A stretch of DNA of 64,000 bases from contig UYFQ01000268.1 in assembly GCA_900617105.1 (NCBI GenBank), forward strand, positions 1-64,000. Direction: 5' to 3'. The notes under the pieces are model-generated. The model saw only the letters and a list, made by a program, of their open reading frames with translations. It was not told where the DNA came from and made no database searches. Origin of the DNA: Hydrurus foetidus. Its lineage: Eukaryota. The stretch's first letter is position 1. The number at the start of each line of letters is the position of its first letter. The position numbers and the translations under genes were made by a program. Positions 4,521-57,223 of the stretch are shown here, piece after piece.

Positions 4521-4853
4521 ATTCCACATGCGTCTGAATGGAAATTGATGTCGACGTGATTTGAAGGTGTAGCATTCATCCAATTTAGATGAACAGTGTC
4601 CGCCCACATGACATTTTAAGTGACGTAGCATTGATTAGTAGAGTAGTGCAGACTTATTTGGTGTCGGTTACGTTTTCGAATTCACAAGTATCGGCACACA
4701 CAAATAATGACGGAGGGTTTCGGCATGGTGGTGACGATCATGACCAAATGTCAATTAAAATGTATCATCCCATGACGAAAAGTGTGGATGGAACAATGCA
4801 CATCAAGAACAACTTGTTACAATCAAATCTACGTAACTATCAAAAATTTTGCA

Positions 4854-5570
4854 ATGGGAAAATCTCCTCAATCCAAGGCAACCAAGAAGGTTGAGAAATC
4901 ATCGAGCTCCACGGCAGCGGCTGCCTCAGATCAACCGAGCCTTAGGGCAGCAGCAAACGAGGATATCTGTAACGAAGACCATGTTTGGGCTCACGACGAT
5001 GAAGACTTAATCAAAGAAGAAAAAAGCACCGTACAGGCAGAGGATGCCGACGTTGTAATTGTCAACCGATCTTCTAACGATAGGGTATTTGATGACAAAG
5101 CCGCAAGATGCTTTATTGTAGTCTCCATGGGAAGAGTTGAGTACAAGAACGTAAAGCAACGCGGCCTTGAAGACAAACTCGAGCCTGTTATAAACATTAC
5201 CATTGTAGACACAACTGGAGTAGTCCGAACTATAATTTGTTGGGGTGAACAGGCTCATCTCTTGGAAACTTGGTTCAAGTAAGAACTATTACATATCTGT
5301 CAAGACACTTAAACTTCTTATCAGTGTCTATATTTCTGTAGCGCAAACGAATCGAGGACTGAGAAACCGACTGTGTTTCTGTTTCGTGATCCGTCGGAGT
5401 TTTTAAAGACAGGCCCACTTTACATACATTCGGATGCTTCAAAATTTCTCCAGGTATGAGTAAGCTATACAGATATTTCTCCAGGAGGCTTAAGTATTAT
5501 TAACCTTACGATTTAAATATTGTCAAATATCATTGTGATAATTTTCTGTAGTTTGTCCTAAAACCGGCCA
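4854..5570 (+). CDS. RPA70-like OB-fold ssDNA-binding protein (cargo gene B, copy A; diverges or is truncated after FVLKPA)
   Basis: VINITIVDTTGVVRTIICWGEQA resembles the RPA1 OB-fold signature (D.TG....lWG..A). Exons 4854-5278, 5342-5453 and 5552 onward have GT-AG introns. Homologue at 47337-48280. Confidence 0.65.
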
Positions 5571-6172: not shown

Positions 6173-7731
6173 ATGCCTCGAATCAAGAAGCATACGCACA
6201 AGAAGTTGCTGACTGAAGGAATTTCGTCCACAACATTGGGTAACGACATCGCTAGGGAGCCGTGCCAACTCGGTAAAACACCTGCTGCCCTATAGCTGTA
6301 AATCTTGGTTGTCCTAACTGTTGGCATTGGTAAAATGATCACAGATGCCCCCAAGGCGATGAGGGCTGCATCCAATGCAATATCGTCAAGCCAACGAAGG
6401 CTGTCGAATTTGATGGAAACGCCGACGTCTATAATTATGGCTTCGTACGCAACTGAAGCTGACATGACCAAGAAATCTGTCTGGCCTGAGCTTTTGAGCG
6501 ATCGTCATAGAGGTACTTAGATAACATTGAATCTAAGGCTCTAACTCAATGTTGACGGGACATCCTACTTCAATCAACAATAGTAGAACCGGCTGTGTTA
6601 GCGACACCGTTAATCGCTCCAAGACCGCAGAAGCTGACACAATCAATGCTGGCGCCATCGCTTATAGCTAGAAGCACTCAGAAGCAGGCGAAGTTACTAA
6701 AATCGCCACCGGTAAAAGCTTCAAACACTCACAAGCTGGCAAAGTTAATAGGAGCGCCGCCGTCGAAAGCTGCAGACCTCCGTAAGCAGGCAAAGTTGCT
6801 GAAGGCGCCACCTATAACGGTTAAGGCTCTAAAAGATTCGGCCCGTAAAATGTCAAAGAAGCCAAGCCATGAAAATCAAACCAACACATGTCATGAAGGT
6901 ACATAGATTAGGATCGATCTTATGCTTTGCCACAACTGTAGATAACCTAACATGGCACATGAATCTAGCCGTCTAAAATGCTGACCAATCCAGCTACATT
7001 AATCATTACATTTGCAGCAGATACGGCCACTCAAACTCAAGAGCTTGTCGAACAGAGCACTACATCATGGAAGCCATCGGAAAATTTGTGCATGCTTAGC
7101 GCCATGTTTGGGCTCATGAATAAGGAGCAACAAAAATTAGCAACGGTAAGCTCTGTAACTGTATTCATTTCTGCAATTTAAAGTTTATAACAATATGCTA
7201 CTCTAACACCAGATGAATGGAACGATGGATGTAAGGGAAGTTTTTAAAGCTGCAGTCAACGAACAGGGCAAAAATTTCGTACGTGGAACTACTTCGACAG
7301 ACGCGCATTTATTCTTAAGACATGTTTCAGACATGCATTATAGATCCACAGGATTAATAGTTAGGTACAGTTTCAAACAATTAGGTTTCAACGGCACCTG
7401 GGACATGACACGTCTCGAGACAAATCTGAGCAGAAAAGGAAAATATGTATTTTTTGGAGCATCGCGGAGAAATAATGATACGCACAAACGCCTTCTTACA
7501 TCTATATCTACGAAATCATTAGACACAGACAAGATTGATACATGGATTAAGGGTAAACCAATGCTTAATGATCATGCCATAGGCGTAGATTTAGATGAAC
7601 ATTTGCAGGGCACAATATATGACAACGGATGCACCGGAAGTGAAATTTTTTTCTCAATTCAAAATTTAGCCACACGAATGCGCTGGATGAACCAATGTTA
7701 TCTGATGGATCTTTATGTCATAAACAAATAA
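6173..7731 (+). CDS. Cargo gene A, copy A: Lys/Pro-rich N-terminus plus predicted papain/C39-like cysteine protease domain
   Basis: The MPRIKK start is shared with copy B (MPRFKK). Intron 7146-7212. ENLCMLSAM, GTTSTD, DHAIGV and IYDNG are conserved in both copies. The N-terminal part has stops and its exon structure is uncertain. Confidence 0.6.
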
Positions 7732-7752
7732 TTTAAATATAGATTTTTCTCA

Positions 7753-7827
7753 GGGGGTAACCTCATTTTTTTCTATATCAACTTCTGTTGGGTCCGTAGG
7801 AATTTATCAATGGTTTCCGGGTGCCCC
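7753..7827 (+). other. Conserved 75-nt structured non-coding element downstream of gene A (copy A)
   Basis: GC-rich island that aligns with the reverse complement of 45112-45186, while its flanks are diverged AT-rich DNA. Its ends are complementary (GGGGYA...TGCCCC). Confidence 0.7.
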
Positions 7828-7951
7828 GTTACTGAATGGAAGTAAAAAAAATACAAATATATTTTTTAACTGAAACTTTGGATTCTTTTTAAGATTTTGA
7901 ATGTAACTTCATAAAAATTCTCAGCAAAACTCTTTTGAATACAAAATCCAA

Positions 7952-10900
7952 TTACAATCGAAATAAACGACTCAGGCGAAAATATTCTTTGTCGATTATC
8001 TCCCGCTCTTTTGCATGACTTGTAAAATGCTGCTCTTTTAATGGTCTAATTAGAAATAGTTTTGATAATTCTGTTGCCCTGGAATTAGCGACATAGTCCA
8101 ATCCGCGAGCCCATGGAGACTTCAGGGAAGGAATCGTGACACAATTACCTTTTACTGTTGACCCTTGCATTTTATGAGTTGTTGTAGCGAATGCAGCAAC
8201 AAGTGGAATTTGCCATCTAAAATAATTCTTCCCATATCTTTCGGTCACATCACATTGTTCCGTAAATGGAATCACATTGGGTATAGATGGTATAACTGAA
8301 TAACCTATATCATTGTCCATCTGGACAAATACCACAGGTAACTCCTTTTGTATATACGAACTTTGTTGATCATTTGCGATTATATCTGGATCATACGAAA
8401 ATGCAAAAGCAACCACCTTGCCTTTTGCACCATTAAAGATTCCTAAATAATTCATATACATGTTATATATTGTGAGCGAATGTTGTATACATAATGTATG
8501 TTGTAAAATAGCTCTCGTAAAATTTTTATAACAAATTGAAAAACAAGATAAATGTTCACCTATTTGTGTTCCCAGGTTCATAGTGCAGCTCACTTTCGTG
8601 CCAATGGCCAGATCTAAATATGGAGATGGACTGCCATACCTTGTTATTAATAACATTGCATCAACGGCTTCTTTATCCGGCAATTTATATTCTTTTGAAA
8701 CAGGTAAATGCCGTGCAATAAGTTTATAACTTTAAACACCATTTGACACTTTTTCTTCAAAATCTGTTTTATTAAGTCTTCTAACTATCTTATTCTCGTG
8801 AGCTATCCATACAGCATCCGGACCAGCTTCTCTCCTTGCTGCTCTTTCGTTTACACATACTCGAGAATTTATCGCATGTAGTAACTCCTGGTTAACAATT
8901 CCTTTTCTTGCGCCAGATAAAAACACATTCATGATCGGAGTCGTATCATGCATATACCTTGTATTTTCAGTTAGAACTACATATTCATTCAAATCTTGCC
9001 ATATTTGGCGCCCCTTAATTGAGCTCTCATGTTTAATATTACTTGTATAGATAGCTTCTGGATCAATTGGCCTTAATTGATAAAAATCTCCAGTAAACAA
9101 CATATGTACACCCCCAAAATGTTTTGATTTGAAACTATTTCGTAGAACTGGATCACTTGTTTGAGTACCCATAGCTGCTATCTGTCGCTCACTTATTTCA
9201 TTTAATGTTTGCAAATTGATCATTGAAATTTCATCAAGGACAATAAGTTTAACACCCGATATTTTACTACCAACAGCTTGTGCACATTCTTTCGACATAT
9301 TACAGACTTTTGACTTCTTTTTTATTCTACCTTTTCCGTAGACTGACTGCCACGTATACCCGCTTATAACACTAGCTGCCGCACCCGTCGGTGCTATGGC
9401 CAATGCTGAACCGTATAAACCCTTCTGTTTCCCATGACATATTTGTGTATATTCCATTATCAAGCTAATAAGGAATGATTTACCAGTACCACCTTCGCCA
9501 GTTACAAACATTAACATCTGACTATTCTTCTCGCCACTTATGTACTCGACTGCAATATTATATGCTTTCAGTTGCTGTTGTGTTAGTCTACTTACATTCA
9601 ATTGTAACGTATTTAATCTTTCGTCATAATTGTCTACTCTACAATATAAATTACAACCATATGTTATATCATCACTAATAGATGTAGACTGTATTGAGTT
9701 TATTTGTCTCAAGTTTTCTATATGTTTATTTTGAATAGTCTGGATAAAATTTTGACAATATCGCATATTTGCAGCCGTAAGATTAATCAGACATTCAGTG
9801 CTCAGATTATTAAAATTTACTGGTATACTTATACTGTCGCCAAGTTGAGCCATATGACTTTCATCTATGACATAGCTGTTTTCATCACTGCTGTTATTGT
9901 ATAAATATTCATCAGTAGGTTCTCTTCTGTCATTTATATTTGTTCCCACATTTTCTCTAATAAGATTTGAGTTGTGCAATAACTCTAAACTGTAATTCAC
10001 ATAAGAAGGAATATCACTATTTCTCTTCAAGTCGTACAGACATTCGACAGCACAGTCAAAACCACGTAATAATTCTTCTTCACCATCACTAGGCCATGGA
10101 ATATGAACAAGTAGAGTTGAGTAACATGAACGTTCATCGCTATCATTAACAGGTATATATGGACAAAGATTAATTACACAATCCTTTCTTAATCGTGTGT
10201 AAACTGTACTATTAATCATAAATTTGTGATTTTTCGATGTAGATATAATAATACCACGATCATCAATACGTAATAATGCCGGAGCGGGGTATACTTTTTT
10301 ATTTTCAATACTAACGGTGTATGATGTGTACAATGAAAATAATGACACATGACATTTACCGTCATATGTTTCTCTTTGCTGAATAACAAGACTCTTATAT
10401 GCCAACCGCTTACCCAGTGCAGAATTAGGACCAGATTCAATAGCTGAAGCTGAACTTTCAAGCTGACCAATAACTTCAGCCCTAGTTTTGAGACCTCGAT
10501 TCAGTTCGTCACCTAATAAATATTTAATAAGGCGGATTTATATAAAAAACGATAAAATTAAACAGCGATTATAAAAAATACATATACAATCAATATATAA
10601 ACTTACGGTGTAGCGGATTAAGATTAATAACAGCCCGTGATGACTTAACTATCTTCAAACCCAATTATGAATAACAAGCCTGAACAGAACCAACCGGACT
10701 ACTTCCCAAAATAGCGCTACCAACGGCATACAAGCGCTGTCGGTCAGTAACAACGCGGCTATTATCAATAATATATTTGATTTTCTTAGCGTAAATATTA
10801 GCCATAACTTTTTTATCTGGCTCCTCAGCTTTTGATGCGTACGATGCAACATATTCTGCGGCACCTACACTTTTGCCAATGTACTGAATGTCATGATCGC

Positions 10901-11064
10901 CTCCATGTGCAACAGTTATTAGCGGACTATGTAAAGTACCATTCAAATAAGCATTATTTCTTTCAGGAATTACGGACACCCTTATTCTGCTTTTCTTATC
11001 ACGATCTCGTCTAATAATAGGCTCGAAAATACAGCCATCATTAACCCAGGGAAAACCGAATCGG
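7952..11064 (-). pseudogene. RepHel (Rep C-terminus plus PIF1-family SF1B helicase), 5'-truncated
   Basis: Motifs CRFGFPW (partial), EYVASYASKAE, TGEGGTGKS, LDEISM, FGGVHMLFTGDFYQL, THKMQGST and YVANSR. Introns 10606-10513 and 8559-8443 sit at the same positions as in copy B. In-frame TAA at 10665-10667 and 8732-8734. Confidence 0.92.
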
Positions 11065-11407
11065 TTAAGAATCTTGAGGGATCAACCAATGAGGTTTGAG
11101 TTCGAACGTGTTATCTTTTGAAGATTTTTTAGCCTAATTTTTTGCCCTTTTCTAAGGAAATTTTATGTTTTTTTAGTCAGTAAGAATCTGACATAATTAC
11201 GTTTTCTACCCTCGTACAACAGAATGAATCTGTTTTGTACAACCCCACCTTATCTTTCTACATCGAACCCCAAGTCTCGGCTAATTTTTCTTTTGTAATA
11301 CTTTTTATGTTCACTTTTATTTTTCATATTTTCGATTTTGCAAATATTTCGATATTTTCTTTTTCGATTAAATTATATATTAAGCTTTGCAAAGAAATGG
11401 GGGCTCC

Positions 11408-38015: not shown

Positions 38016-38444
38016 CCGAATACATTTCAGAGGCCTATATAGGATATGCGGATTTACAATTGGGGGATAAACCTAATGGTGGTTCCACCTCTATATAACA
38101 AATGTCATTTTATATGACGCTAGATTTGCAGGGATTTGACCGTGTTCTCGCAGTCCGAGAATGGTTTTAGGGGGTCTAATTTTGGGGGGATTTGACGATC
38201 CGGGGGTCTAATGTTGATGCGATTATCCGGTGGGTTTTATGGAGCTGGACGTTTGGATGATCCGGGGGGGGGGGTCTCATGGAGTTTGGGTGAAACACAC
38301 GACGCAACCCTCTGTACTGTTATCTACTCTTGTGATGAGACGAACTGAAACTAGCTGAACTTCAGTGCTGATGTATTCATGATGGGCTAGTCATTAACTT
38401 CAGATCGAACCATTTACAGGCTCATAGTATTGACTTGCTTTTTT

Positions 38445-41400
38445 ATGGAGCGTTGTGATATTTTGAGGGATGCCCGAGTTGTTCCGCAGAGAGGTGACAA
38501 CAGCTGCCTTTTTCATTCGCTAAGTTTTTGTCTCAGTTATGATGGGATAGTGCCAAGTATTCACGATGATATGTCCGGTTTTCGTTTGCGGGAGGAGATT
38601 TGCAGTTACATCCGCGATAACGAAGATGTGGTTATCAGTATTGCTCCAGAGGAGCAGCGGACATTATCTGAGGCTGTTGGAATGGAGGGTTTTACGTGTT
38701 CTAGTTACTGCGCCAAAATGTTGAATCTTATGGAGTGGGGATCTGTCATTGAGATTGCTGCGGCTGCGGAAATGTTTCTTATTGGCATTCGAATCTATGT
38801 GCCTGTTACGCGGAAGCGGTATTTTACGTTGTTGGGCTCATACAGGTGTATTGGGTTTGATTCGAATTCTAGTGAGATCTATTTATTGTACACTGGTTTC
38901 AACCATTACGACGCTTTAGTTGATTGGTCACCTGGGGGCATCAATGTGGGTCTGTGCAGCGCCGACAACTCTTCATCGTATCTTGGTCGCCCAATACATG
39001 AGTATAATACATCTGCATCATTTGCGGAACGGAGGCGGCTTTCACGTAAGCGTGTGTCAAGTGCTAATTTGGAATGTCGTGGCGACATGGCATTGTCGTC
39101 TAAATCTACTGAGTACATGTCTCGGCGGTTGCCTATCTATTCCGGACTGACTGATGAAGCTAAGAGGACAAACAGAAAGCTTCGAATTGAAAGGCGCGTT
39201 GCCACAAGGAGAAGTGTTTCAAATTCTGTTGGCCGGTCATCCTGTTCAATTGATGCATCGCTTTATGCCAAAAATTATGATATATTGACAAGGTTCATTG
39301 TCTGCGGGATTTGTGGCCTGGAAGGTTCTAGTGTTGGGGCGAAGCTTATTTGTGATATGCAGCATTTTATTGATGCGTCAGGGTTGACGGCAAAGTTCAA
39401 ACTTTTGACAACGGTTCACACATATATGTCAACGTATGACTGCATGTTCGTTGATGATCTTTTGCGGGTTTTCAAAGATGGAATTATTATCGGTTGTACT
39501 CATTTGTGTAGTAGTTGTTGTCACCAACTTCAAGGCAAGAAAAAGTCTGGAGTCATTTCTGACTTGGCACCAGTGTGTGTGGACGATGCCATTACTGTTA
39601 TCGAAGGTCACGATACTACCATGGCGCATCACGATATGATACAAGAGGGTGAAGAATGCCAGTCTGGTCCCTTATATAGTGAAGTTGTTGGTCTTTCTAG
39701 CTCTAAGGAAGGGTCTGCATCTCGAAGTTACAGCGTTCCCAAACTCACGTTATTTAATGGGTTATTTGCCGGAACTATACCTTCTGAGTTGGTTGGTTTA
39801 ACTTGTGTCGAAGAAAGTATGATAAATATCTATTCTTCCGTGACGAAAATGTTTTTGGCGGGTGGAAAGCACTACAAAGTCAAAGGCGGAACCAGCTACA
39901 CAATTATTAATGATTTGACTAGTGTAGCTAAGTATCTACCACGTATGCCGTCCATTGAAGATACAGCTGTTATGCGTCACAGAAGAACTGATGTTGGGAA
40001 GGAGTACAAATATCGACCATTTAGGGTATTTTCGGCATTGAATTGGTTGAAAGAGCACAATCATTTGTATAGTGATATCGAAATTATCTGGCCTATTAAT
40101 GTTAAGTATTGGCAGGAAACGACATCACCAGTTGATATTCCTTTCATTGAATTAACTGATGATGAGGATTGTGATATTGATGGTGGTAATGTTGCAGTCG
40201 ACGAAGTTTCTGATGAATACTCTACTAATACAGGTATATTTTGCCTTGTTGTGTTACTACGTGTTCATTGCTAATTTTCAAGACTGACATTCCCAACATT
40301 ATCATATTAGTATCAGCAGGAAAAAAGCACGAAATTTTGTTGGAGTCACCTGACTCCTTGGTTTCACATATTGAGGGTATATGCAGTGCTTTAATTGACC
40401 CATCACATTGTACTTATGAGAGGAACACGCTACATGAATTCGTATGTCAGTTCAAAAATCCTGAGTATTATCTATCGCGGTGTTTTGCTTGTCTATATCC
40501 GTACGGTCGTGGGTGTCCTAGCGACAAGTCGTGTGGTATGCTTAGCAACGCAAAATACGTAAAACACATGTTGTGTTTAGGTGGTGGGCCTTCAGCTAGG
40601 AGGTTTCAACAGTCAGCTGGATTCATCTTTAATATGTATACAATGGAGATGAGAAGAAAGTTAGGGGCGTTGCTTTCGTGGCTCAAAAAAAAAATCTTGA
40701 TAGTACAGCTCCACTTGAAGAAGTACCAAATATTAGTGATATTAACAATTTATTAAATTATTTGGAGGAGTCTTTAGTTTCCGCTCAAGAAACATTGAAG
40801 TCTAGTAATGTGTCTAGCGATACAGCTATGAATAAGTCATCGGACAAGTATGATGAAAGAGAGATGCAAAAATTGATTAAACGATTAATACCTTATTCTC
40901 AGTCGTTACAAGGAACTGCAACTCATATAGCTTATGAAAGGACTAAACTTATGGCAATGATTCCGTCTCCTATAATCAATAAGTTGGGTTTGTGGCGACT
41001 ATTTTTTACTGTTGCACCAGCAGATCTTTATGAAAGTCGCTTTTTCGAACTTGTACAGAGCCAAATAACTGATCATAGTATTGAATTTTGGAATACCAGA
41101 GTTAATAAGGTAAGTTAATTATATTTACAATTTCTATACCCATTATTTTGCATTAATCAGTGTAATTTATTTACTTATATTTAGGCGAAGTTGCTAGATT
41201 CTGATACAAGAATGAATCTGTTGCGAAGTCATCCAGCAACTGTCGCACGTCTATTTGATTACAAGCAGGATTGTATGTGGAAATATCTTGTGATGGGTGA
41301 GTCTAAGCCATTTGGAGAAGTTACTGATTTTTGGAGGCGAGTCGAGGTATGTTTTGAATTAACCATACATAATGTCACTTTCAGTTCTAATTCATTTACG

Positions 41401-44400
41401 TACAGTATCAGGCTCGCGGAACACCACATGTTCACAGTTTGATTTGCATTTCAAAGGCGGATGGTATTGATTCTGGTACAGTTGATAGTGACGACGTTGT
41501 TGAACAAAATAAAGTTAAAAGTTATGTTCAAGGTATTGTCAGCGCAATTTTGGTCAAGAAGATTAATTGTACGAATATAAGTGTTGATATGAATGGCAAA
41601 GATCAGCAGAATATTGGAGATACGAATATAATGAATAAAGTTGAGTTGGATGAATCTGATTTTCTTTGGAATCCATCTAGGGAATATTTTTCAGATGATA
41701 TTCACCCATGCCGACTGCCATTTGATGCCCATTTGAATTATGAAAGGAGTGTTGATGGTGTATTTGCCGACAACGATGTGCAGCGTCAATACCGTCGACT
41801 CCAAATAGCAACACAGTTTCACAGGTGCTGCTTCACGTGTTTTAAGTATTGTTATTCGCACAACCAAGTATGTAGATTCGGGTTTCCATGGGTTTCTGAT
41901 GGTTGTACATTTGAGCCTATCATAAGGCGAGATCGCGACAAGAAGAGCAGAATTCGGGTTTCTGTCTTACCACAACGAAATAATGCATATTTAAATGGTA
42001 CATTACACAGTCCATTAATATCGATTGCTCATGGTGGAAATCATGATATTCAGTACATTGGTAATAGTGTTGGTGCTGCAGAATACGTCGCGTCATACGC
42101 ATCGAAAGCTGAAGAACCAGATAAAAGTGCGATGGCTAATATTTACGCCAAGAAAATAAAATATATTGTTGATACAAGTTCTGTTGTTACAGATAGACAA
42201 CGATTGTATGCCGTCGGGAGTGCTATATTGGGGAGTAGTCCGGTTGGTGCTGTTCAGGCGTGCTATACATTATTGGGTCTTAAAATCGTTAAATCTTCAA
42301 GAGCTGTTATTAATCTTAATCCATTGCACCGTAAGTTTTGCTTATTGCACATTTAATTATTTGTATATATTTTATTTATATTACTTAGCGGTGTCTAATT
42401 GACAGTTTCAAATTATATTAGGTGATGAGATGAACAAAGGTCTTAAGACTAGGGCTGAAATTATTGGTCAACTTGAAGATTCAGATTCAGCAGTTGAATG
42501 TGGCCTTAACTCTGCGATGGGTAAGCGTATGGCATATCAATTGTTAGTCATACAGCAGAGAGAAAATTATGATGGTAAATGCAACATCACCATATATTCG
42601 TTGTATACATCATACAACGTTTCTGTAGCAAGCACAAAAGTGTACCCTGCTCCGTCATTACTACATGTTGATGACGGTGGTATTATTATATCCACATTAA
42701 AAAATCACAAGTTTATGATTCAAAACACAGTCTACACGAGATTAAGGAAAGATTGTGTTGTCAATCTGTGTCCATATGTACCTGTGAACGATAGTGACGA
42801 GCGATCGTGTTATTCAACATTACTCGTACATATACCATGGCCATGGGGTGGTGAAGAGGAAATTTTACGAGGCTATGAGTCTGCTGTAGAGTGTTTGTAC
42901 AACCTCAAGTTGAGTGACGACATTCCACCGTATGTAAATTATACACTTGAATTATTACACAATTCGAATGTTATTAGAGACAATGTTGGAGTGAATATCA
43001 ATGAGGTTGATGAGGAGTCTGATGAGTTCTTATACAATAATTGCAGCGATGAAAACAACTTTATTGTTGAAGAAAGCAATTTGTTACAATTTGGCGATAC
43101 CATCAATATGCCCTTAAATCCGTATAATAACAATATTGACTCTATGATTAATATCACTGCTGCAAATATGCGGTACTGTAAAAATTTTATACAAAATGTT
43201 CAAAATAAACATTTAGAAAGTTTAAGAATAGAAAATTCAATTCATTATATAATGGCGAATTATCATCTGGTTCAAATATTTATTGTAAAGTCAACAATTA
43301 TGAAGAAAGATTTAAAAAGTTAGAAGATAATGTTAGTAGGCTTACAAAGCAGCAACTGAAAGCGTACAATATTGCCGTGGAGTATATAAGTGGTCAGAAA
43401 AACAGTCAAATGTTAATGTTTGTCACTGGCGAAGGTGGCACTGGTAAATCATTCTTAATTAGCTTAATAATGGAATATACTCAAATATGTCATGGGAAAC
43501 AGAAAGGTTTATATGGTTCTGCTTTGTCTATAGCACCAACAGGAGCTGCAGCAAATGTAATCAGCGGTTATACTTGGCAATCAGTCTATGGAAAGGGTAG
43601 AATAAAAAAGAAGTCAAAAGTGTGTACTATGTCGAAAGAATGTGCACAAGCTGTCGGTAGTAAAATTGCTGGTGTCAAACTTATTGTTCTCGATGAAATC
43701 TCTATGATAAACTTGGAAACATTGAATGAAATTAGCGAACGGCAGATCGCAGCTATGGGAACACAAACTAGCGATCCGATATTGCGACAGAGTTTCAAGG
43801 AAAAACATTTTGGAGGTGTGCATATATTGTTCACTGGAGACTTTTATCAACTAAAACCAATTGAGCCAGAGGCTATTTATACAAATGATATTCAATACGC
43901 ACGCTCAATTAAAGGTCGCAAGATTTGGTTGGACTTGAATGAATATGTTGTATTGACAGAAAATACTAGATATATGCTCGATGCGACGCCATTAATGAAT
44001 GTTTTCTTATCCGGGGCAAGAAAGGGTATTGTCAATCAAGAATTATTACAAGCTATGAACTCCCGAGTATTTGTTAACGAAAAAGCTGCCAGACGAGAAG
44101 CAGGTCCAGACGCTGTATGGATCGCACACGAGAATAAAGTTGTACGGAGACTTAATAAGACAGACTTTGAAGAGAAAGTCTCAAATGGTGTTATCAATCA
44201 TAGGATTATTGCACGGCATATTCCTGTATCAAAAGAACATAAGATGCCTGACAAGGAAACTATTGATAAATTGTTATTAATTACAAAATACGGCAGTGCA
44301 GCTCCTTATTTAGATTTGGCAATTGGTACTAAGGTTAGCTGCACTATGAATTTGGGAACACAAATAGGTACACTCTTGTTTATTTTCGTCTATGTAATAT

Positions 44401-44965
44401 GTATTGTCTAGAATATAAATGTATTCCTTTATTAATATTTGTGATTGCCAATTATTATAGGTATATTTAATGGGGCAAAAGGGAAAGTTGTGGCCTTTGC
44501 ATTCTCCTACGATCCAGACGATATTGGAATTCATCAACAAAGATCCAATGTACAAAACGAACTCCCTGTCGTATTTGTCAAAATGGATCACGATGTAGGT
44601 TATTCAGTAATACCATCGCTACCTAATGTTGTACCATTTACCGAGCAATGTGACATCACCGAGAAATATTCTAAAAATATCATCGATGGCAGATTCCGCT
44701 TGTTGCTGCATTTGCAACTACAACCCACAAAATGCAAGGCTCAACTGTCAAAGGAAATTGTGTAACTATACCTTCTTTGAAGTGTCCATGGGCTCGTGGA
44801 TTGGACTATGTTGCTAATTCTAGGGCAACGGAATTGTCAAAACTGTTCCTCCTTAGACCTTTGAAATCGCAGCATTTCACAAGTCATGAAAAAGAGCGAA
44901 ACAAAATAGACGCAGAATATGCGCGCTTAAGCCGCTTGTTTTGCTCAGCTGGTGAAACTAATTAA
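38445..44965 (+). CDS. RepHel transposase: OTU protease, Cys-rich region, HUH Rep, PIF1 helicase; 6 exons, 3 frameshifts
   Basis: OTU: GDNSCLFHSLS, WGSVIEI, NHYDAL. Rep: FFTVAPAD, spliced RRVE/YQARGTPHVH, YVASYASKAE. Helicase: TGEGGTGKS, LDEISM, GDFYQL, HKMQGST, YVANSR. Introns 40234-~40310, 41110-41184, 41347-41405, 42331-42421, 44368-44460. Frameshifts near 40665, 43245 and 44673. No C-terminal endonuclease seen. Confidence 0.93.
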
Positions 44966-45111: not shown

Positions 45112-45186
45112 GGGGCACCCGGAGACCATCTATAAATCCCTACGGACCCAGCAAGAACTGTATGAGACAAACATGAGGTTGCCCCC
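45112..45186 (-). other. Conserved 75-nt structured non-coding element (copy B)
   Basis: Reverse complement aligns with 7753-7827: 13/14 identity at the 5' end and 37/42 at the 3' end. Confidence 0.7.
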
Positions 45187-45207
45187 TACGAAAATAGCTT
45201 GATTAAA

Positions 45208-46452
45208 TTAACTCTTTATGACATAAAGATCCATAAGAAAACATTGATTCATCCATCGCATACGTGTTGCTAAATTTTGTATTGAAAAAACTTTTTCACC
45301 GGCAGTACACCCATTATCATATATAGTGCCATTCATATTGTCGTCAACATCGACACCAATCGCATGGTCATTTAGAATTTGCTTTCCCTTTATCCATGTA
45401 TCTAACTTATCGGAATCTGAGTGTTGCGCAGTTATAGATGTTAGCAAACGTTTGTGAGTATCATTATTTTTACGTGTTGCTCCGAAGAATACATATTTCC
45501 CTGGCCTACATAAATTTGATTCGATTGAATGCATGTCCCAATCGTTGTTGAACCCTAGCTGCTTGAATTTGTAGACAACTAACAATCCTGTCGCCTCAAA
45601 ATGCATCTTAGATACATGTCTGAAAAATTTGTGGGCATCGGTAGATGTTGTTCCCTAACGAAGTTTCTGCCCTGTTCACCAACTGCTGCCTTAAACATAT
45701 CCCTAACATCCATGGTTTGGTTCATCTGTAATATAATATTGAACTTGTTAAAATCAACTCTAGCTGTTAAGATCTCATATGGTCCGAACTCACCGTTACT
45801 AAGTTTTTCTGGTCTTCGTTCATAAGACTGAACATCGCGCTGAGCATGCATAGATTTTCAGATGCCTTCCACGTTGCAGGTCGTTGGGTGATTACTTCTT
45901 GACTTGGGCTCACTATTGGTTCACAAATTGGAGTAATTAAAGCCGGGATCATCGAATAGTTGATAAAGCATTGACAGACGGTAGGTTGTTGAAGTCAGTT
46001 ACGTTTGAAAGCAGCATGCATAAGTATAGAGTGTAACCTACCGCTTGTGGTTGGCTCTGATTTTGACGCTCTCGCCAATTTGGCGTTTGGTTTGGCAATT
46101 GTTGCTGATGGAGTTATGCCTGTTCTCCGGAGGTTGATGCATTTGTTAGTCGAGGATTCTAATTCAGCTATTGAAATCAAAAGGATCTTACCACTCGACT
46201 GTGGCTTGGGCTTTGTCACCAGTGCCATTGAAATCTCTGGTTTCGCAATCTTAACTGATGGTTAATTGCCAATAGTTCAGAAGTTCATTGGATAAGTTTT
46301 TGGCGACATTTGGCGACATTTGAATCTAGCAACCGGGTTAAGTTGAACTTACTTAGCTTTTGTGGCGTGTTAGTGAGTTTCCGGAGAGCTTTTGTTGGCG
46401 CTTTCAGTGGAGTTGACCCGTCGTGTTGTTTCAGCTTCTTGAATCGTGGCAT
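45208..46452 (-). CDS. Cargo gene A, copy B: basic N-terminus plus predicted papain/C39-like cysteine protease domain
   Basis: WKASENLCMLSAM, intron 45793-45726, DHAIGV, IYDNG. One frameshift in a G run near 45653. N-terminal exon structure uncertain. Confidence 0.65.
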
Positions 46453-46492: not shown

Positions 46493-46760
46493 GATAAATC
46501 CGTAAGCTCAACAATTCGAGCCTTGCAGTGGCGGCTTGAAGATGGCGTGGCTGATTTGTGGACTACGTGGCATCCATCGATATATTGATTGCTGCGATAT
46601 CTGCGACTTGAGATGTGCAGCAATCGATAAATCCGTAAGCTCAACGATTCGAGCTTGCAGTGGCGGCTTGAAGATGGCGTGGCTGATTTGTGGTCTACGT
46701 GGCATCCATCGATATATTGATTGCTGCGAGATCTGCGACTTGAGATGTTGCAGCAATCGA
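46493..46760. repeat. Near-perfect tandem duplication, 133-bp period, 2 copies
   Basis: gataaatccgtaagctcaac...gcagcaatcga begins at 46493 and again at 46626. Confidence 0.95.
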
Positions 46761-47336: not shown

Positions 47337-48280
47337 TTACGGAATTCTCCTTGGTCTGAATGGTTTCACCGGGCTCTTTGCGGAGAAGTCAAATTCGGCT
47401 TCTGTGAACGCTACAGGCGGAGGAGTATACCAATGTTGTGGTTGTTTTAGATATTCACCCCTATATGTGTAGTACTGGTACGACGGCCACTCGATTACTT
47501 GGGGCAACGCAAGGTGACAAAGCGATAACTGGGCCCGACGTGGATTCGAGATAAGAGTGGTTAATGAGTAGATCTCCGAGACTTCGTGGTAAAGTGCTTG
47601 GGAGGGATTGGCCGGCTTGAGGACAAACTACGAATTTTAAGTTGAAAGTTAAACCTTTGCTTCAATGTTGCGAATTCGGTTTATTATGATTTACCTGGAG
47701 AAATTTGGAGGCATCAGTGTGGATGTAGAGTGGCCCTGTCGTTGTCAACTCCGAGGAATCAGGAAGTAGAAAGGTTGTTGGGACCTTTTTCTTGGATTCG
47801 TTGGCCCTACAGACTCATGAACTGTAGATTAGCATGTCAACATGTCAACATGAATTATTGTCAGCATGGAACTAAAACGTACCGAAACCACTTTTCAACA
47901 AGGAATGCTTGATCGCCCCAAACAACAATTGTTCGGAGTACACCCGTTGGATCGACAATGTAAATGTTCAGCACTGCCTCAGATCTTTCAGTTCCGAGAA
48001 TTTTCTTGATGTCAACAGGACTGATGCTTTTTACAATGAAAGTTCTCTTTAATTTGTCGTCATATACTCGATCGTCAACTGAGTCTTCATATACTAGTTC
48101 GTCAAGTGGAGTGATTATATCAACTTCATCTTCCTCTGCTTTCACGAAGTCTTCATCGTCCAAAGCGTAGACGATGTTGTCGGGTCGTTGACTCTTCTCA
48201 GCTGCTTCTCGATCAGATGCTTCTCTGGAGCTCATCGATTTCTCCGCTTTTGTTGGTTTGGATAAAGGAGATTTCCCCAT
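47337..48280 (-). CDS. RPA70-like OB-fold protein (cargo gene B, copy B), 3 exons; last exon has a probable frameshift
   Basis: MGKSP start, VLNIYIVDPTGVLRTIVVWGDQA, TGPLYIHTDASKFLQ and FVLKPA are all shared with 4854-5570. Confidence 0.65.
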
Positions 48281-48599
48281 TGTTTGCACTGCGATCAACT
48301 ATGGATTCAATTGTGGTCAAGCTATATTATAGAAGCTATAGTTTTGCTGGCGCCATGATATGGATAAGTCAATCGTGATTTCAGTATACGACGTCATTTG
48401 TATGTCGAATATACCGTCATTTCTTCGGTATTTCAGTAACTGATCCTCTAACTGAAAAAAGCTGACGATTATCTACTGCAAGTTACGATGACAATGATAA
48501 ATATCAACCAATCGTATGTGTCATTCGTCTAAATAGACGAATGGTGTCAATTAAATTCACGTATTCCAATATACGTACCTAAGACCGTGCGACATCCGC

Positions 48600-50400: not shown

Positions 50401-53400
50401 ATGGTGGAAACTCGCACAAAACGATTGCTTGAACAGCAGGACGAAGAGCCATGTGATAATGCGTCAGTTGACACATTAGCTGGGTCGGAAGACGATGATT
50501 TACCACGTGACACAACCGGGCATGTGGTGCTTTATGAAACTCGTCAACCGCCAAAACAATTCATGGATCTCGTCGGTGGAGCAATTAAGTTCGAACAGCT
50601 TATGCTATGCGTTGAATCGTATGGCAAATGCCAACTTTACACGCAGATGTTCCGTGACCTCTACACATCTGAAGCTCAGAAAGAGGCTCTGATCAGCAAG
50701 CTTCAGAGAAACGTGTACTTTTTCCAGAGTTTTATTGAAGCAAAGCCGACATACAAAACATGTCTTGGAGAAAGAATAATGTTCAATCAATACGCTGTTG
50801 AGAAATTCCGCAGAAACAATGAGAAATTCGACCTCATCAAATTGCTGTAAGTCGATCAGCAGCTATATAAAAATCGTTTCAAATGAGCTAATCCATGGAA
50901 CTTTTGATTACAGACGCGCCATCAACATAGTCGACGCACTTCCTGACACGAAGGTTTCAATTATACAGTTGAACAATGAGACTCTGCGAGTGCGAAAGCT
51001 TAATGACGATCTACTGGTAAGCAATACATATCAAAATTGACAAGTCAATGTCGAATCCAATATTCTCTGGCTGATGGAAACTTAATGCATCCTTAACAAG
51101 CAGACACTGGTCGGGTACAGTTTGCAAAATATTCACAAAACGAAATTAGGAAGAAAATTATCAGACTTCTCTCGAAGAGCACAACAAGATTACAAGGAAT
51201 TCTTGTTCTGCCTTGCTGACAAAGACATTCCATTAGATTGGAATAAAACAACAGCTTACAACAAGAAAGTTTCAGCTGCAAGGAAAAAAGCACGACTGGA
51301 AAAAGACGCGGTAAGTCAATATCAATATAACAACGTAACACCGTCAACAAACAATCGGATACTAATTTGATTAATGAAAATGGCAGTTGGCAAAAGAAAC
51401 TGAGCCCATCGACGCGGAGACAACACAGATAAATGTCTCGCAGGTACGGCATATTAAGTTAAATTGCATTACTCTTATTGACTTCTCTAATTCTAATATC
51501 CCACTCCCATGACAGACGCGTACGAAAACAGTTAAAAGACAGCAATTACAGAGATATACCTCAGAAGACAACATAGATGTACGTAACAATACAAATAATT
51601 ATCGTAATATTGAGACTCCTTATTTGCTGTATGTACATTTTTTAACGCAGCAAAATGATATGAGTACTCCTATAGACGAGGACGATGGCCAACAGACCCA
51701 AGTGTCTACCACCTGTGACATACAAGAGATTACGGTAAGCTTGTTAAATAAAACAACAATATAAATAAAAAAAGATAACAGTTCAAAATGAAATAATCAA
51801 TACATCGTTAAATAGGACGAGATACGGCCAGTAAATGAACCTGCAGCAGTGATGCAAACAGCTAGTCAATCTGCAGCAGAGGTGTCCCAAATAGTCTGTG
51901 ATACTGAGGCCGAGGTACTCCACATCCTGAGTGAAGTAATAGCACAGGTAAACATAACATAATAACTAATGCTAGACAACTATGTGACATGGTTTTCAGC
52001 GTTTTAATTAATTAACACATATTTCAACCACTTAAACTTAGGTTCATGAAAATCGTGAATGGATGGATCATATAACAATAAAAATGCGAAGTTTAACTAC
52101 TGCAAAACAGGAAGAATTTAAATTTATAGTAAATTGCTTTTTTGAAAACAACAAAAATGATAATGAACAAAATGAATCATTCAATATACCAAATGCAACA
52201 TTCAACGCTCTAATAGGTAATGAATCGCAGAGCGATGTAGTAGTTTCCGGAGAAGAACTTAGTACGGTATCAAATGAAACCATAGTCACAAATATTAGTA
52301 CAGCACCTTTATTTACTGAAAACATAACAATTAATAACACACAGCAATATTCACCGACCAACGAAAATAATAACTTAAATATAACAACAAATAATATGCA
52401 AGTACTCGGACAAGCAAATAATACAGCGTTAGCGACGATAACAACATTAGAAGAAGTAACAAAAAGTAATAAGCAAAGAGTAAATAGACCTAGGCAAACA
52501 AAAACAAAATTTACCCCATACAATATAACAATTACGTTAAGAAACAGGAATACATGCACAATTCCGGTAACAACATTTTTCAGTTCCGCAAGCCAGCCAA
52601 GGATTGGTCGTGGGCAAAACTTAACAAGAATTGCTAAAGTAAGAACAGACGAAGAGCTTGTGAGTGACGAAATCGATTTATATATAAATCATTTAAATCA
52701 CAAACACAAATTGGCGAAAATAACAGACGTTATAATATTAAATGTAGATTTTTATATAATGGCACTAAGATACGTAGTACAAGAAAGGGATGAATTCAAT
52801 GCACCACAATTACAACAGCCAACGGGTACAGAAGAATATGGTGAATTAATACCAAAATATCCGCTAATAAAACCTTACGACGAAGAAAATGAAATTAGAT
52901 GCACAACCGTAATTGGACATTTCCCGAAAAAAGAAGATTTTAAAAATTTTCAAAAGGTACGATAATAAATCAGAATGTTCCTCGATAAATAATCAATTGA
53001 CAATTCAAGCTAATTTCTGATTTCTTACGCGATAACGTTATCACAGATTATGTTCCCAATCCAATCAGACGGACACTGGATCCTCGTTGTAATCTCATTA
53101 AAATACAAACAAATAATGATGTGCGATAGCTTGGATAATAACAATTGCCAGTCAGATGTGTGGAGGATACAGTTTCATTTCTACGGTACTACTATCCGGA
53201 AATTCCGGAATCAGACTGGAGATACGATACCTTAAACGCAGCAGACAAATTCCAAAATTTGGAACTTAATACTGACTGTGGCTTTCACATATTAAACTTT
53301 ATGCATGCGGCACTTAAAAATGCAAGAATACCACTATTACATGAAACCTTTAATGAATTCAAGGCACGTACTGATAGAATATTGCATGACTTGACAAAAC

Positions 53401-53483: not shown

Positions 53484-54240
53484 AAGAAACACCACAAGTA
53501 CCATCGCGTGAAACTGTCAATAATTTGGATGAAATATAACATAATGTATCAATAATTCATTAATTAAATTGTCTTAAACTAGAAATGCAATAATAGAAAA
53601 CTCTCAAGTAATAATCAAAAAAATAATTTAATATAATTTTATACTCAATTTTTTTGCACTATTGCACTACACATCCTGTGTTCACAAGCATTCAACTCAG
53701 AAATGTTGGACATTGAATTACTGTTATCCGGTATGCACATTCTGTATTCCGTATCCAAATCCAGGTTGGGGCTTTATCCCCCACAAGGCACGTAGATACG
53801 AGCCCCCCCACAATATAGGCCTACATAGGACCTTAATTAAGTGTTTTCAAGGAAACCTATAGGGCTTACAGTCGAAACATACAAAATAAAAAATCCTCAA
53901 AACACGGGTTTTCCGAAAATCCTCGGCCCTTTTGGACCCAAGACCTCGTGTTTTTTTGGATTCCTCATTTTGAATTCCTCGATCCGAGGGCTTCAAAACG
54001 AGGAATTTGAAAACCTCAAAACTCAAAATTACGAAAAAGTGGCTGGTTCGGTTTCACCGATTTGAGGAATTCTGGAAACCCGTGTTTTGAGGATTCGAGG
54101 ATTCCAGTGCGGGGCATAAACGTAACCGGGGCATAAACGTAACCGAATTTAACGTAAACATCACCCGCATCAGCCATCGATTGCCGTTGCTTCTCATTAT
54201 AATTCTCAACCCGATCAACATCTCGTGAATATCTCGCCGA

Positions 54241-54738
54241 ATGGAAGTCAACAATGAGGATGAGCTTCCAGGATATTTCGTCGGAATCGATTTCCGACAA
54301 GTGCTTCCTTCTCTAGAGCAGAAGAAGTGGATGGTGAACAGAATCAGCAACGGCCTTGGAAAAGCTTCAGAAATTGCAAAGCGCTACAATATCAAGAGAA
54401 AGCACCTGAACGTTTTAGTGAAGAGAAATCGCCAGGGAATTCCTGTTCATTTTGCAGCTGGTCGACCTAGGGTTCTTGACATTGAGAGTCATGATACAAT
54501 TGAAGAAAATATCGGCAATCAGATGTGCCTGTGCATCGAGGACTTGAAGACGCAAATCAAGTCTGAGTATCAGTTATCCTTCACGCGGCGATATCCACCA
54601 CTTCTGGATCATGTTGCTGAGGTCGAAAACGATGTCAGTGTTGGGAAAAGGACTCTGCGAAGATATGTTACGCGACTTCATCCCGGTGTCTTTCCACAGG
54701 GTCTTCTCGCGCCAAATTTAGACGAAGCTGCGCTCTAA
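54241..54738 (+). CDS. Stand-alone HTH DNA-binding protein resembling the transposase N-terminus
   Basis: LEQKKWMV...ASEIAKRYNI...GRPRVL...VGKRTLRRY aligns by eye with VLQKTWLV...YRFLTDKYRL...GRPDIL...ISRRTTARK of the neighbouring transposase. Confidence 0.7.
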   Translation: MEVNNEDELPGYFVGIDFRQVLPSLEQKKWMVNRISNGLGKASEIAKRYNIKRKHLNVLVKRNRQGIPVHFAAGRPRVLDIESHDTIEENIGNQMCLCIEDLKTQIKSEYQLSFTRRYPPLLDHVAEVENDVSVGKRTLRRYVTRLHPGVFPQGLLAPNLDEAAL

Positions 54739-54785
54739 ATGAATCATCTTACATGCTTATTATCAATTAAATTCATATGTTTATT

Positions 54786-56561
54786 CTAAATTAAAGGAAC
54801 TGCATCAAACTCCACTGCGGCGGTTTTCCTCGCTCTCTTCTTTGGTACCACTCCAGCAGCAAGTCTCACGGCAGCAGCCTCCTTCCTCTTCAGTGAGTTG
54901 TTCTTCTTGAGATCAGCTGCCGTAATTTTCGCGATTCTCTTGGCATCCTCGCTGGCTATGACAGCAGGGTTTGTCAGAAATACATATCTTCTGCGGTTGA
55001 GCACCAGGTTATCTCGGTCTCCAGTATACTGCCCCCCTTCATCGAAACCTAGAATTTCGTAGTCTTTTTCCTTCAGCTCGCCGTTCTCTTTCATCAATGC
55101 GCATAGCTGAGGCATGCATTTCCACACTTTTGCGACCTCGTGAGTCTTGAAAGGCTCCTTGCATTGGCCCAAAATTTGCTCCACATTGCAACCTCCAAGA
55201 GCTGGGTCATATTGTCCGGTAATCTTGAAGGACTCCACCACCATGTCTCTGCGTAGCGTTGTCTGCAGTATATATTGAACCACCTGGAGTCCTTCGATAC
55301 ATGATTTCACATGGTGGCACGGCATCTTACTTCCAACGATTGCCTCGTGTGATGCAATCATGGCTCTGAGTCTGTCAGACATAGTCTTCTCCAGTACATC
55401 TGCGATTGATTTCATATTCCGTTTCTTTGTCTTCGACGAGAGGAAGCACTTTCCTGCATCACATGGTTGAGTGATTGATGTCGTAGAGGCAGGAGGTTTA
55501 CCTATGACGATGTTCTGCTCAGCACACATCGCGGCCATTTGCGCCGTCTGCAGCGGCTTAATCTGCGTATCTTTCCCGTCGAGAGTGAAATATGACGGTA
55601 CGGAATCTTCAATGCCATAACGTATTCTCAAGTCTGTCACAAATCTCACGTAGATGTTAGTGAACCACCACTTGTAAAACTCTTCGTTCACTGACCTTGT
55701 CTTGGCAAATACTACGTAACCGATGGATGTGACCTCGGTACCTATTCCGAGCCCTGCCACTTCGTGTACATCAATAACGCCAGCTTCCATGTTGTCATCA
55801 GCACAGATGTAGATAGGAGGTGCAGTCGTCCCAGTTGCGTTCATACAAAGGTAGAACTTGATGAAGTATGCTGTTAGACTTGAGCCTTTGACCGGGAGCA
55901 CCTTCAATGGCCCACCCCTAGCCTTCTGCTCTTCGATATCGTATATGACACGAATTTTATCGGTCAGAGCTCCCCCAGTTTGATAAGAAGTCCCGTCGGC
56001 ATTGATGGCAATGTGCGCATTTGTCAGTGGCATCATGAGATGATGCGCAACGGCAACAGAAACGGCATTGTACTTGTTGGCGGTGGCTACTGCTCTCGCA
56101 TCCGTCGTCTGCTCAGCATAGCCCAGTCTGAGGTTCATTTTCTCGATTTTTCTGGCAGTCGTTCGTCTGGAGATTGTCCTGATTGAGCACTGAGCAACTC
56201 CAGTTTCTTTCGTAACTTTTGAGACCAGTTCAGCTTGAAGAATCTTGCCGAATTCCTCGATGTTCATGTTGTGAATACCAGAAGAGACTTGAGCTTTCAC
56301 TTTCTCCAGTTCAGATGGCCCTAATATATCTGGTCGACCACGGCTTTCGTACAGCCGATTCTTCTTCTTGAACTTGAAGACTAGTCCCTTCAAGTAAGAT
56401 TCTGGGAGCCTGTACTTGTCAGTCAGAAATCTATAGCTGACTCCGAAGTGTTTAACCTCACTAACCAGCCAAGTTTTTTGCAACACTGTCAACGATGTTG
56501 AATCTAATTTCGTAACTCTTCGACCAAAAGGATTGATGAGTCTCTCAGGAATCGACTCCAT
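54786..56561 (-). CDS. pogo-like DDD transposase, 591 aa, uninterrupted
   Basis: N-terminal HTH plus GRP motif. Catalytic INADGT, FTLDG and PPASTTSITQPCD, with 39 residues between the 2nd and 3rd Asp. Basic NLS-like C-terminus. Confidence 0.9.
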   Translation of the reverse strand: MESIPERLINPFGRRVTKLDSTSLTVLQKTWLVSEVKHFGVSYRFLTDKYRLPESYLKGLVFKFKKKNRLYESRGRPDILGPSELEKVKAQVSSGIHNMNIEEFGKILQAELVSKVTKETGVAQCSIRTISRRTTARKIEKMNLRLGYAEQTTDARAVATANKYNAVSVAVAHHLMMPLTNAHIAINADGTSYQTGGALTDKIRVIYDIEEQKARGGPLKVLPVKGSSLTAYFIKFYLCMNATGTTAPPIYICADDNMEAGVIDVHEVAGLGIGTEVTSIGYVVFAKTRSVNEEFYKWWFTNIYVRFVTDLRIRYGIEDSVPSYFTLDGKDTQIKPLQTAQMAAMCAEQNIVIGKPPASTTSITQPCDAGKCFLSSKTKKRNMKSIADVLEKTMSDRLRAMIASHEAIVGSKMPCHHVKSCIEGLQVVQYILQTTLRRDMVVESFKITGQYDPALGGCNVEQILGQCKEPFKTHEVAKVWKCMPQLCALMKENGELKEKDYEILGFDEGGQYTGDRDNLVLNRRRYVFLTNPAVIASEDAKRIAKITAADLKKNNSLKRKEAAAVRLAAGVVPKKRARKTAAVEFDAVPLI

Positions 56562-57223
56562 ATCGCAGTTGGAAGTAAATTGTTCTGTAGAACGATATTT
56601 TGTGCTATTAAGGATGAGCTGCAGGTTGCTGATATCATTTGAAAATTCAAAATATGGTTACTTTTATGCCCCGGTTACGTTTATGCCCCGCACTGGGATT
56701 GAGGTTTCGTTTTTTGTATGTTTCGCATGTTATACCTTTAGGCGAACTGGGAATGCAGTAAATTTTCACGTCAAATTTAATTTGAGATACGAACAAAAAA
56801 ATTCACGTGTGGGACACAGACGATTTTTTTGGGATGACACCACCCGGGCATGGGTCGCCCACACGAAAAAATCTCTACCCGCCAATTCCTGTTGTTGAAG
56901 ATGAGACGAATCATGAGGATCCTCAAATCCACTCCATCCAAAACAGTCTTCAATTATTTCACCAAATAAATGCAAGTGGTGAACGTACAAAGCTGGGTTG
57001 TTGTTTCTCATCGTCATGCGTGATGAATCTCTACTGCAACAGTTAACTGTTAGCACTCATTGCGGTGACACCACCAACATCCGAGGTCCAAGCTGAGTGA
57101 CAAGTCACGAAACTTCTATCTTTAGAATTGAAACCAGCGACCTATGAGGTTAATTGGTTATTTAAAGATATTGAAGACACACCTCAAGACAGGAAGCTAT
57201 CAGCCGACTCATCGCACTGCACT

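Follow-up and report, generated by a model that had tools for sequence, protein, structure and literature searches.

A conserved 75-nucleotide non-coding island between convergent genes of two Helitron-like elements from Hydrurus foetidus, with a possible role as a 3'-UTR RNA element

Two related Helitron-like elements, inverted relative to each other, lie within the 64,000 nucleotides of Hydrurus foetidus DNA analysed here (contig UYFQ01000268.1, positions 1 to 64,000; hereafter the window, or 64-kb window). In both elements a gene that we call gene A and the transposase gene RepHel are convergent, and the gap between the two genes is 220-243 nt. A first-pass annotation, made from the letters alone, had pointed out a G+C-rich island in this gap and proposed that it is a functional RNA or a single-stranded DNA structure. 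What is being kept between these two genes, and at which level might it act?

Copy 1 (7060-11062) and copy 2 (45879-41875) gave a 75% alignment, and further genes are colinear beyond it. The main features of the two elements are as follows.

7213..7731, + strand: last exon of gene A, copy 1, with a predicted papain-like fold and invariant His-Ala and Asp-Asn-Gly-Cys.
7146..7212, + strand: likely intron of gene A, copy 1 (GT..AG, phase 0), predicted from the sequence.
45208..45725, - strand: last exon of gene A, copy 2; the reading frame is shifted by one base close to the exon start.
7952..11081, - strand: 3' part of RepHel, copy 1 (PIF1 helicase), truncated by a tandem array.
38391..44965, + strand: RepHel, copy 2 (OTU, DUF6570, Helitron_like_N, PIF1), in several frames.
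53014..53232, + strand: Ulp1 (Peptidase_C48) piece, E 3e-5, the last gene recognised in copy 2.
38031..38043, + strand: tentative left end of copy 2, a 10-bp inverted repeat with the right end (pattern set after viewing both ends).
53813..53833, + strand: tentative right end of copy 2, an inverted repeat overlapping a stem-loop.

In copy 2, the Pfam domain Helitron_like_N (E 2.5e-6; at 28.3 bits slightly below the cut-off of 28.9) is accompanied by a PIF1 helicase domain (E 6e-25), the combination of Rep and helicase expected of HLE2. DUF6570, found in 38391-40271 (E 6.3e-16), is given as the marker of the HLE2 group in the available text of PMC11417382, in which OTU and Ulp1 are captured domains. 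With Rep and PIF1, an OTU domain upstream, DUF6570 and an Ulp1 piece, and with candidate short inverted ends and a 3' stem-loop at copy 2, the elements resemble HLE2 (Helitron2/Helentron). They differ in the candidate inverted repeat of copy 2, which is 10 bp long against the 12-16 nt given in the same portion of that source. The candidate ends (38031, 53813) occur as a single full copy, in a region with 300 inverted pairs of at least 10 nt. The start of the gene containing the Ulp1 piece is also matched in copy 1, and from the position of this piece in copy 2 that element extends far past the island.

Other repeats surround the two elements. A head-to-tail array of ~800-bp units (11067-38020; 30 CGATTT tracts listed, likely ~34 units) interrupts RepHel of copy 1 and adjoins the candidate left end of copy 2. 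It contains an ORF encoding a chromodomain (Pfam Chromo, E 3e-9) and looks like an amplified 3' piece of a retrotransposon. Just outside the candidate right end of copy 2, a 26-nt inverted repeat (53892-54095, 92%, arms 152 nt apart) may be a small non-autonomous element. Beside it, at about 54101-56699, is an element with 50-bp terminal inverted repeats (92%) that contain two 17-bp subrepeats. Two ORFs converge within it, one of 591 aa on the - strand and one of 165 aa that has weak helix-turn-helix hits; they gave no Pfam match at 0.01, and by eye the element is Pogo/Tc1-like. An imperfect palindrome of 58 nt is present at 62655-62712.

The last exon of gene A has 37 protein relatives (45-99% identity) in which the His and the Asp-Asn-Gly-Cys are invariant, and a conserved Cys is present in the exon preceding the 7146..7212 intron. 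A structure model of gene A (pLDDT 85.5) matched papain-like proteases with Z values of 5-6 in the top rows, a middling score (for example 8add_A, Z 5.7, rmsd 4.6, 123 aligned; 5xe8_A, Z 5.5, rmsd 3.5, 108 aligned). Foldseek gave no match to the model at E 0.001, and an atlas search gave no usable match. Gene A (7060-7731, 45208-45879) is a candidate papain-like peptidase outside any Pfam family; its Cys is encoded in the exon preceding the intron, its His and Asp in the last one. The element thereby encodes three genes of cysteine-protease type, OTU, gene A and Ulp1. The RepHel tail has 76 protein relatives, and the longest contigs carrying gene A proteins and RepHel-tail proteins are equal in size (10391, 4255 and 1075), suggesting that the convergent gene pair recurs in other families. 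In the gene A region, copy 2 contains a 132-bp tandem duplication (46493-46760) that is absent from copy 1. A further gene on the gene A strand is found in both copies (4776-5456 and 47692-48298); its last part resembles an RPA-type OB fold by eye, and Pfam gave no support for this.

The island itself can be divided as follows.

7753..7827, + strand: conserved island, copy 1 (island position 1 is 7753).
45112..45186, - strand (reverse complement): conserved island, copy 2.
7751..7753, + strand (45186-45188 in copy 2): YAG preceded by a T-rich tract, at the island's 5' edge, resembling a 3' splice acceptor.
7759..7766, + strand: invariant core 1, with no substitution among the rows listed for copy 1.
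7767..7788, + strand: variable U-rich middle, accounting for 12 of the 16 positions at which the copies differ, with indels in other contigs and a small hairpin of unstable register.
7790..7797, + strand: invariant core 2 (GGGTCCGT).

The two copies of the island can be aligned without gaps, are identical at 59 of 75 positions, and begin 21 nt after the gene A stop in each element. Their G+C content, 0.45 and 0.55, exceeds that of the upstream (0.14/0.24) and downstream (0.23/0.29) flanks. The coordinates and letters thus agree with the first-pass description of a same-length G+C-rich island. Its surroundings had been described as unalignable AT-rich spacer, which fits the downstream side, where gaps are needed; upstream, the spacer is 21 nt in both copies and 12 of the 21 letters align. 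Fourfold sites were counted in six coding blocks aligned between these elements, and only 140 of 313 (45%) are identical. At this rate the probability of at least 59 identities in 75 positions is 2e-9, for island boundaries that were chosen post hoc. This difference from fourfold sites indicates that the island is under selection. The island occurs only twice in the 64-kb window, and a model built from both copies found no third one there (one match, E 0.92). The equal distance from the stop in both copies and the lack of a shared target duplication speak against an insertion of a tiny inverted-repeat element.

We examined whether the island could be a coding exon, an outcome also considered in the first-pass annotation. 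Five of the six frames contain stops in at least one copy. The frame obtained when the phase-0 donor at 7146 is joined to 7754 is open in both copies; only 3 of the 16 differences fall on third positions in this frame, and 10 of its 11 fourfold sites are identical, which is beyond what coding alone would give (P 0.002). In the frame continuous with gene A, 8 of 16 differences are at third positions (P 0.13), a count in favour of coding. Versions of the island found elsewhere differ in length by +4, +4 and -2 and share no frame common to all, and therefore the island is not coding. The stops, the third-position counts and the indels all speak against an exon. The island is real, non-coding and under selection, as its conservation far above fourfold sites and the further versions described below both indicate.

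Further versions were sought in contigs from public sequencing runs, those containing the stretch being mostly from freshwater, sediment and biofilm samples. On copy 1, 115 contigs were aligned (40 of 79 difference rows and 29 pieces listed), and on copy 2, 59 contigs (all 12 difference rows, 27 pieces listed). Judging from the table, differences within ~30 letters of an aligned contig end appear to be unlisted, and many pairing partners are consequently invisible. Core 2 had no substitution at 45142-45149 in all 12 rows on copy 2, and none at 7789-7799 among the 40 of 79 rows on copy 1. Other versions showed no listed change at island positions 38-45, and their changes and indels were concentrated at positions 15-37. 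The island is complete in three contigs that differ from copy 2 in both flanks (records 3 and 4 of run X1, +4 in length; record 12 of run X15, -2). These flanks likely belong to more distant Helitron families; that contigs switch flank at both island edges would fit truncated copies ending here and divergent families equally well. In one contig each of runs X1 and X9, a divergent gene A is joined at the same point to the island's 3' half, and the loose end translates to a stretch of protein P0008, 71% identical to the query. An apparent skip of 156 in contigs on copy 1 probably reflects a divergent gene A family and not a deletion. In runs X5 and X15 the island's 3' half has the greater summed contig depth, which does not represent copy number and was not taken as evidence.

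Of three loose ends of new type listed just downstream, two contain AATAAA ~10 nt past the island on the gene A strand; the motif is absent within 60 nt in both window copies. Among the runs listed, none recorded as RNA contains the stretch. Record 18 of run X19, which is possibly RNA and maybe DNA, is unspliced across the 5' edge of the island. Searches with the gene A and RepHel proteins confirmed no homologous locus in viral contigs, metagenome contigs or prokaryote genomes. Pattern scans returned 10, 14, 49 and 3 loci, with two further scans returning 0, and none of the 76 loci scored with the two-copy model (E<=1). A look-alike at 515-584 of locus L013 turned out to be a ~70-nt insertion in a helix of bacterial 23S rRNA, a chance match to the pattern.

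The folding of the island was then examined, with the following predicted stems.

7754..7759, + strand: closing stem P1, 5' strand, pairing with 7822-7827.
7822..7827, + strand: closing stem P1, 3' strand.
7799..7817, + strand: six-pair stem with a 7-nt loop, with an A-U/G-C swap at 7801/7815 and three G-U pairs.

In the RNAalifold consensus all 19 pairs are kept in both copies, with two double and two single changes; 10 of the 16 differences between the copies lie in loops and the other 6 preserve pairs. The consensus energy is -19.25 kcal/mol on the gene A strand vs -8.65 on the other strand, in line with the earlier assignment of an RNA to the gene A sense strand, and the structure conservation index is 0.89 vs 0.60. 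Against dinucleotide-preserving nulls with the same substitutions, the consensus fold gave z -2.2 and -2.4 (P 0.026 and 0.013) on the gene A strand and an unremarkable z of -0.7 and -1.1 on the other. As DNA, the island folds weakly on both strands (z +0.6 to -1.0). Since an alternation of G-U with C-G or A-U preserves pairing on the gene A strand alone, and since the DNA fold is weak, we infer that the gene A strand is the relevant one and that the island acts at the RNA level. The single copies are not unusually stable compared with shuffles (z -0.67 and -1.80). P1 is the sole stem with high probability in both copies (0.94-1.0 for five of its six pairs), and the six-pair stem has a pair probability of just 0.00-0.03 in single-sequence folding.

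The first-pass annotation had relied on compensatory changes. The closing stem tolerating U-G or C-G was recovered in the consensus as pair 7758/7823, as was the A-U/G-C swap at 7801/7815. The hairpin swap at 7781/7788 fared less well: it is part of the consensus, but its 3' partner is an A opposite G in contigs of three runs (row 7788 on copy 1; row 45151 on copy 2, with summed depth 8.84/63.9 in X1, 6561.5/18215.9 in X5 and 31.9/44.3 in X15), and we therefore regard this swap as probably incidental. One contig with the A opposite G (record 9) is only two letters off copy 2. The two double changes had P values of 0.10-0.15 in four kinds of shuffle and were reached in 115 of 500 in another, and thus do not stand as evidence on their own; the two full sequences contain no significant covariation. 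Energy and double changes taken jointly gave P 0.006 on the gene A strand for the same two full sequences. As for single changes in the contigs, G-to-A at 7800 (two contigs from X1 and two from X9) would replace a G-U pair by A-U, its partner not being visible, and agrees with the six-pair stem. G-to-A at 7754 (X1, X5 and X9) breaks the outermost P1 pair, and G-to-U at position 48 (row 45139), seen in another family, a stem pair, unless an unseen partner has changed in each case.

The RNAalifold form leaves the best-kept core unpaired, and CCU of core 1 pairs with 7819-7821. An alternative form with a three-way junction keeps 22 of 22 pairs and lies 1.4-1.5 kcal/mol above the RNAalifold form. 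Its junction pairs are invariant, with a probability of 0.00-0.01 in single-sequence folding. Because these pairs never vary, the three-armed shape, which would pair nearly all of the invariant letters, is a putative one.

Position behind the stop, strand-biased folding with G-U pairs, a tolerant loop and fixed cores fit a 3'-UTR RNA. We consider an RNA-level role of some kind to be fairly probable. The more specific reading that we favour, an undescribed 3'-UTR RNA element, probably a three-way junction, that would act where the gene A mRNA ends, is tentative, with a probability of roughly 0.4. The island would likely fold as RNA within the 3' UTR of the gene A transcript, the closing stem forming the first arm. 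ACC (7760-7762) may pair with GGU (7791-7793) and hold the variable loop, and CCG (7794-7796) may pair with CGG (7818-7820), followed by a two-letter bulge and the six-pair stem. Folded in this manner, the island may help form or protect the 3' end of gene A in the gap of convergent transcripts, and could recruit 3'-end or decay factors that limit overlap with the opposite RepHel transcript. A role at the 3' end is proposed because the genes converge on a gap of only 220-243 nt and because AATAAA is present in the two loose ends downstream.

In the literature that our search reached, mostly outside subscription papers and supplements, no such Helitron RNA element is described, and a query combining helitron, covariation and structured RNA found nothing in the same body of papers. 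As far as this search reaches, the motif is undescribed; structured 3'-UTR elements of transposons are already known as a kind. Helitrons are thought to need just their ends and RepHel, and an internal motif that is kept while neutral sites are near saturation points to an unrecognised control layer, at the RNA level or in second-strand synthesis. If the island is an ordinary protein-binding 3'-UTR element, it would represent a new Rfam-type family of modest interest. It is small and has natural variants.

Several other readings have to be weighed against a 3'-UTR RNA. The island may be a DNA-level cis site between the convergent genes, bound by a protein or used for second-strand priming on the displaced strand. 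Invariant letter cores, weak covariation and four GG-N(1-3)-CC motifs in the island are what sequence recognition would leave, and in the available text of PMC5876387 the priming of the second strand of the Helitron circle is open, with lagging-strand synthesis or a circovirus-like primer under discussion. We nevertheless judge a DNA site to be unlikely, as folding of the DNA is weak on both strands and the bias in folding favours the gene A strand, whereas the plus strand is the one transposed in Helraiser according to the same text, from which HLE2 may differ; Helraiser is also described there as able to move when a marker gene is flanked solely by its two ends. Quite unlikely, in our estimate, is a role in splice control, in which the edge YAG would serve as an alternative 3' splice site and folding would control the choice between the protease exon and a short last exon. 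A T-rich tract and YAG stand exactly at the edge in both copies, three divergent contig alignments (records 3, 4 and 12) pass through the YAG, the 7146-7754 frame is open in both copies, and G-to-A at 7754 leaves the AG intact. On the other hand, the +4 and -2 changes break this frame, just 3 of 16 differences are at its third positions, no joint is listed among the contigs on copy 2, and record 18 of X19, a run that is maybe DNA, passes the site unspliced.

A catalytic or 3'-end-processing RNA of a new class, whose compact three-way junction would cut or cap the transcript of gene A, appears slightly less probable still, and we give the same low weight to its form as a new-class self-cleaving ribozyme that ends this transcript before it overlaps RepHel. 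The size, the invariant unpaired and junction letters, and the tolerance of a variable loop would suit a ribozyme, and the ACC/GGU helix followed by CCG is, we presume, like the P3 region of HDV and of small-ribozyme character. Against this, Rfam gave no match at any threshold, the core motifs compared for hammerhead, HDV, twister and pistol were not in both copies, the would-be HDV L3 is ~28 nt and variable, and cleaving away its own poly(A) tail would usually be harmful to an mRNA. If this reading were true, gene A and transposase transcripts would never overlap and would give no dsRNA for host silencing; a cleaving island would represent a class of ribozyme housed by a DNA transposon, and no such case was met in the parts of the literature that were searched. 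A small RNA gene of its own in the spacer, or a host RNA captured there, is very unlikely: the stem closing the 5' with the 3' end and the contigs with both flanks unlike copy 2 speak for an independent unit, but no tRNA and no C/D, Sm or T-loop motif was found, and a run of seven T within copy 1 would stop RNA polymerase III on the gene A strand. As for the absence of any function, the island ends are imperfect inverted repeats, and a tiny inverted-repeat element or a gene-conversion patch could be imagined, as could the coding exon treated above. The identical distance from the stop, the lack of a shared target duplication, the gathering of differences in the middle with cores fixed in several versions, and the presence of only two matches in the window leave this group of readings largely refuted and highly improbable.

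The favoured reading, a 3'-UTR RNA, was compared with known RNA classes. With the Rfam 15 covariance models there were no matches in the window at the gathering threshold, and at E<=10 the best E values (0.8-5) were at chance level and differed between the copies; ARAGORN found no tRNA. Using core-motif patterns, we found no hammerhead, HDV-like, twister, pistol, SECIS, IRE, C/D, Sm or histone motif in both copies. Together these searches confirm what had been noted by eye, that there is no match to tRNA, hammerhead, HDV-like or SECIS consensus. A T-loop motif was not found in the island, and the HDV L3 and J4/2 motifs are absent on all four strands. SECIS was rejected as the pattern is absent and the last exon of gene A has no in-frame TGA. 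A scan for bacterial promoters and terminators gave 0 and 0. Visual comparison also led us to drop likenesses to the TPP riboswitch, twister, HDV and Y RNA, to readthrough signals, to tRNA-like 3' processing elements and to the termini of the neighbouring 54105-56695 element.

Among known systems, the Helitron 3' terminator hairpin was compared with the island, which had been proposed as a possible internal or ancestral rolling-circle terminator. Like the hairpin described for Helraiser in the accessible portion of PMC4778049, the island is a G+C-rich inverted repeat downstream of RepHel. CTRR is an end feature of HLE1 in the available text of PMC5148889, and there is none at a shared place behind the island hairpin. 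The island differs from a terminator in that it is 75 nt long and branched, and lies >8 kb from the end, the genes of the element continuing over this distance past it. Its scores against the candidate ends of copy 2 were reached by 31-100% of shuffles in all eight comparisons, indicating no likeness. Its location and this lack of resemblance do not support a terminator, and the weak folding of the DNA on both strands argues against the single-stranded version of that proposal as well. With regard to HLE2, the available text of PMC11417382 names neither a conserved internal RNA or DNA motif nor a papain-like gene convergent on RepHel.

HDV-like ribozymes, as far as described in the available text of PMC4836649, share with the island a closing helix followed by a 3-pair helix and then a hairpin (order P2, P3, P4). 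The island is unlike them in having no short conserved L3, no J4/2-like motif, no P1 partner in both copies and no Rfam match; at the place of L3 is its variable loop of ~28 nt. Two short stretches of the island presumably resemble the P4/P5 half of the TPP riboswitch, and eukaryotic TPP riboswitches act in 3' UTRs near splice sites. Here the pyrimidine-binding half and the loop motif are missing on the gene A strand, Rfam gave no match, and letters responsible for the resemblance are altered at positions 46 and 48 in other contigs.

The ENE of the Evade retrotransposon is presented in the available text of PMC12501189 as a structured 3'-UTR element that stabilises transposon RNA. In the ENE, according to that text, repeated U-rich tracts form internal loops, whereas the island has a single U-rich stretch, which is its most variable part and is interrupted by G in copy 2 and other versions; an ENE triple helix was rejected, as the island has no paired U-rich tracts, and the host is a DNA transposon. 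What the two have in common, within the portion of the source available, is a structured element between an ORF and the element end, a U-rich stretch held by G+C-rich stems, and the kind of role proposed, namely protection of an RNA 3' end.
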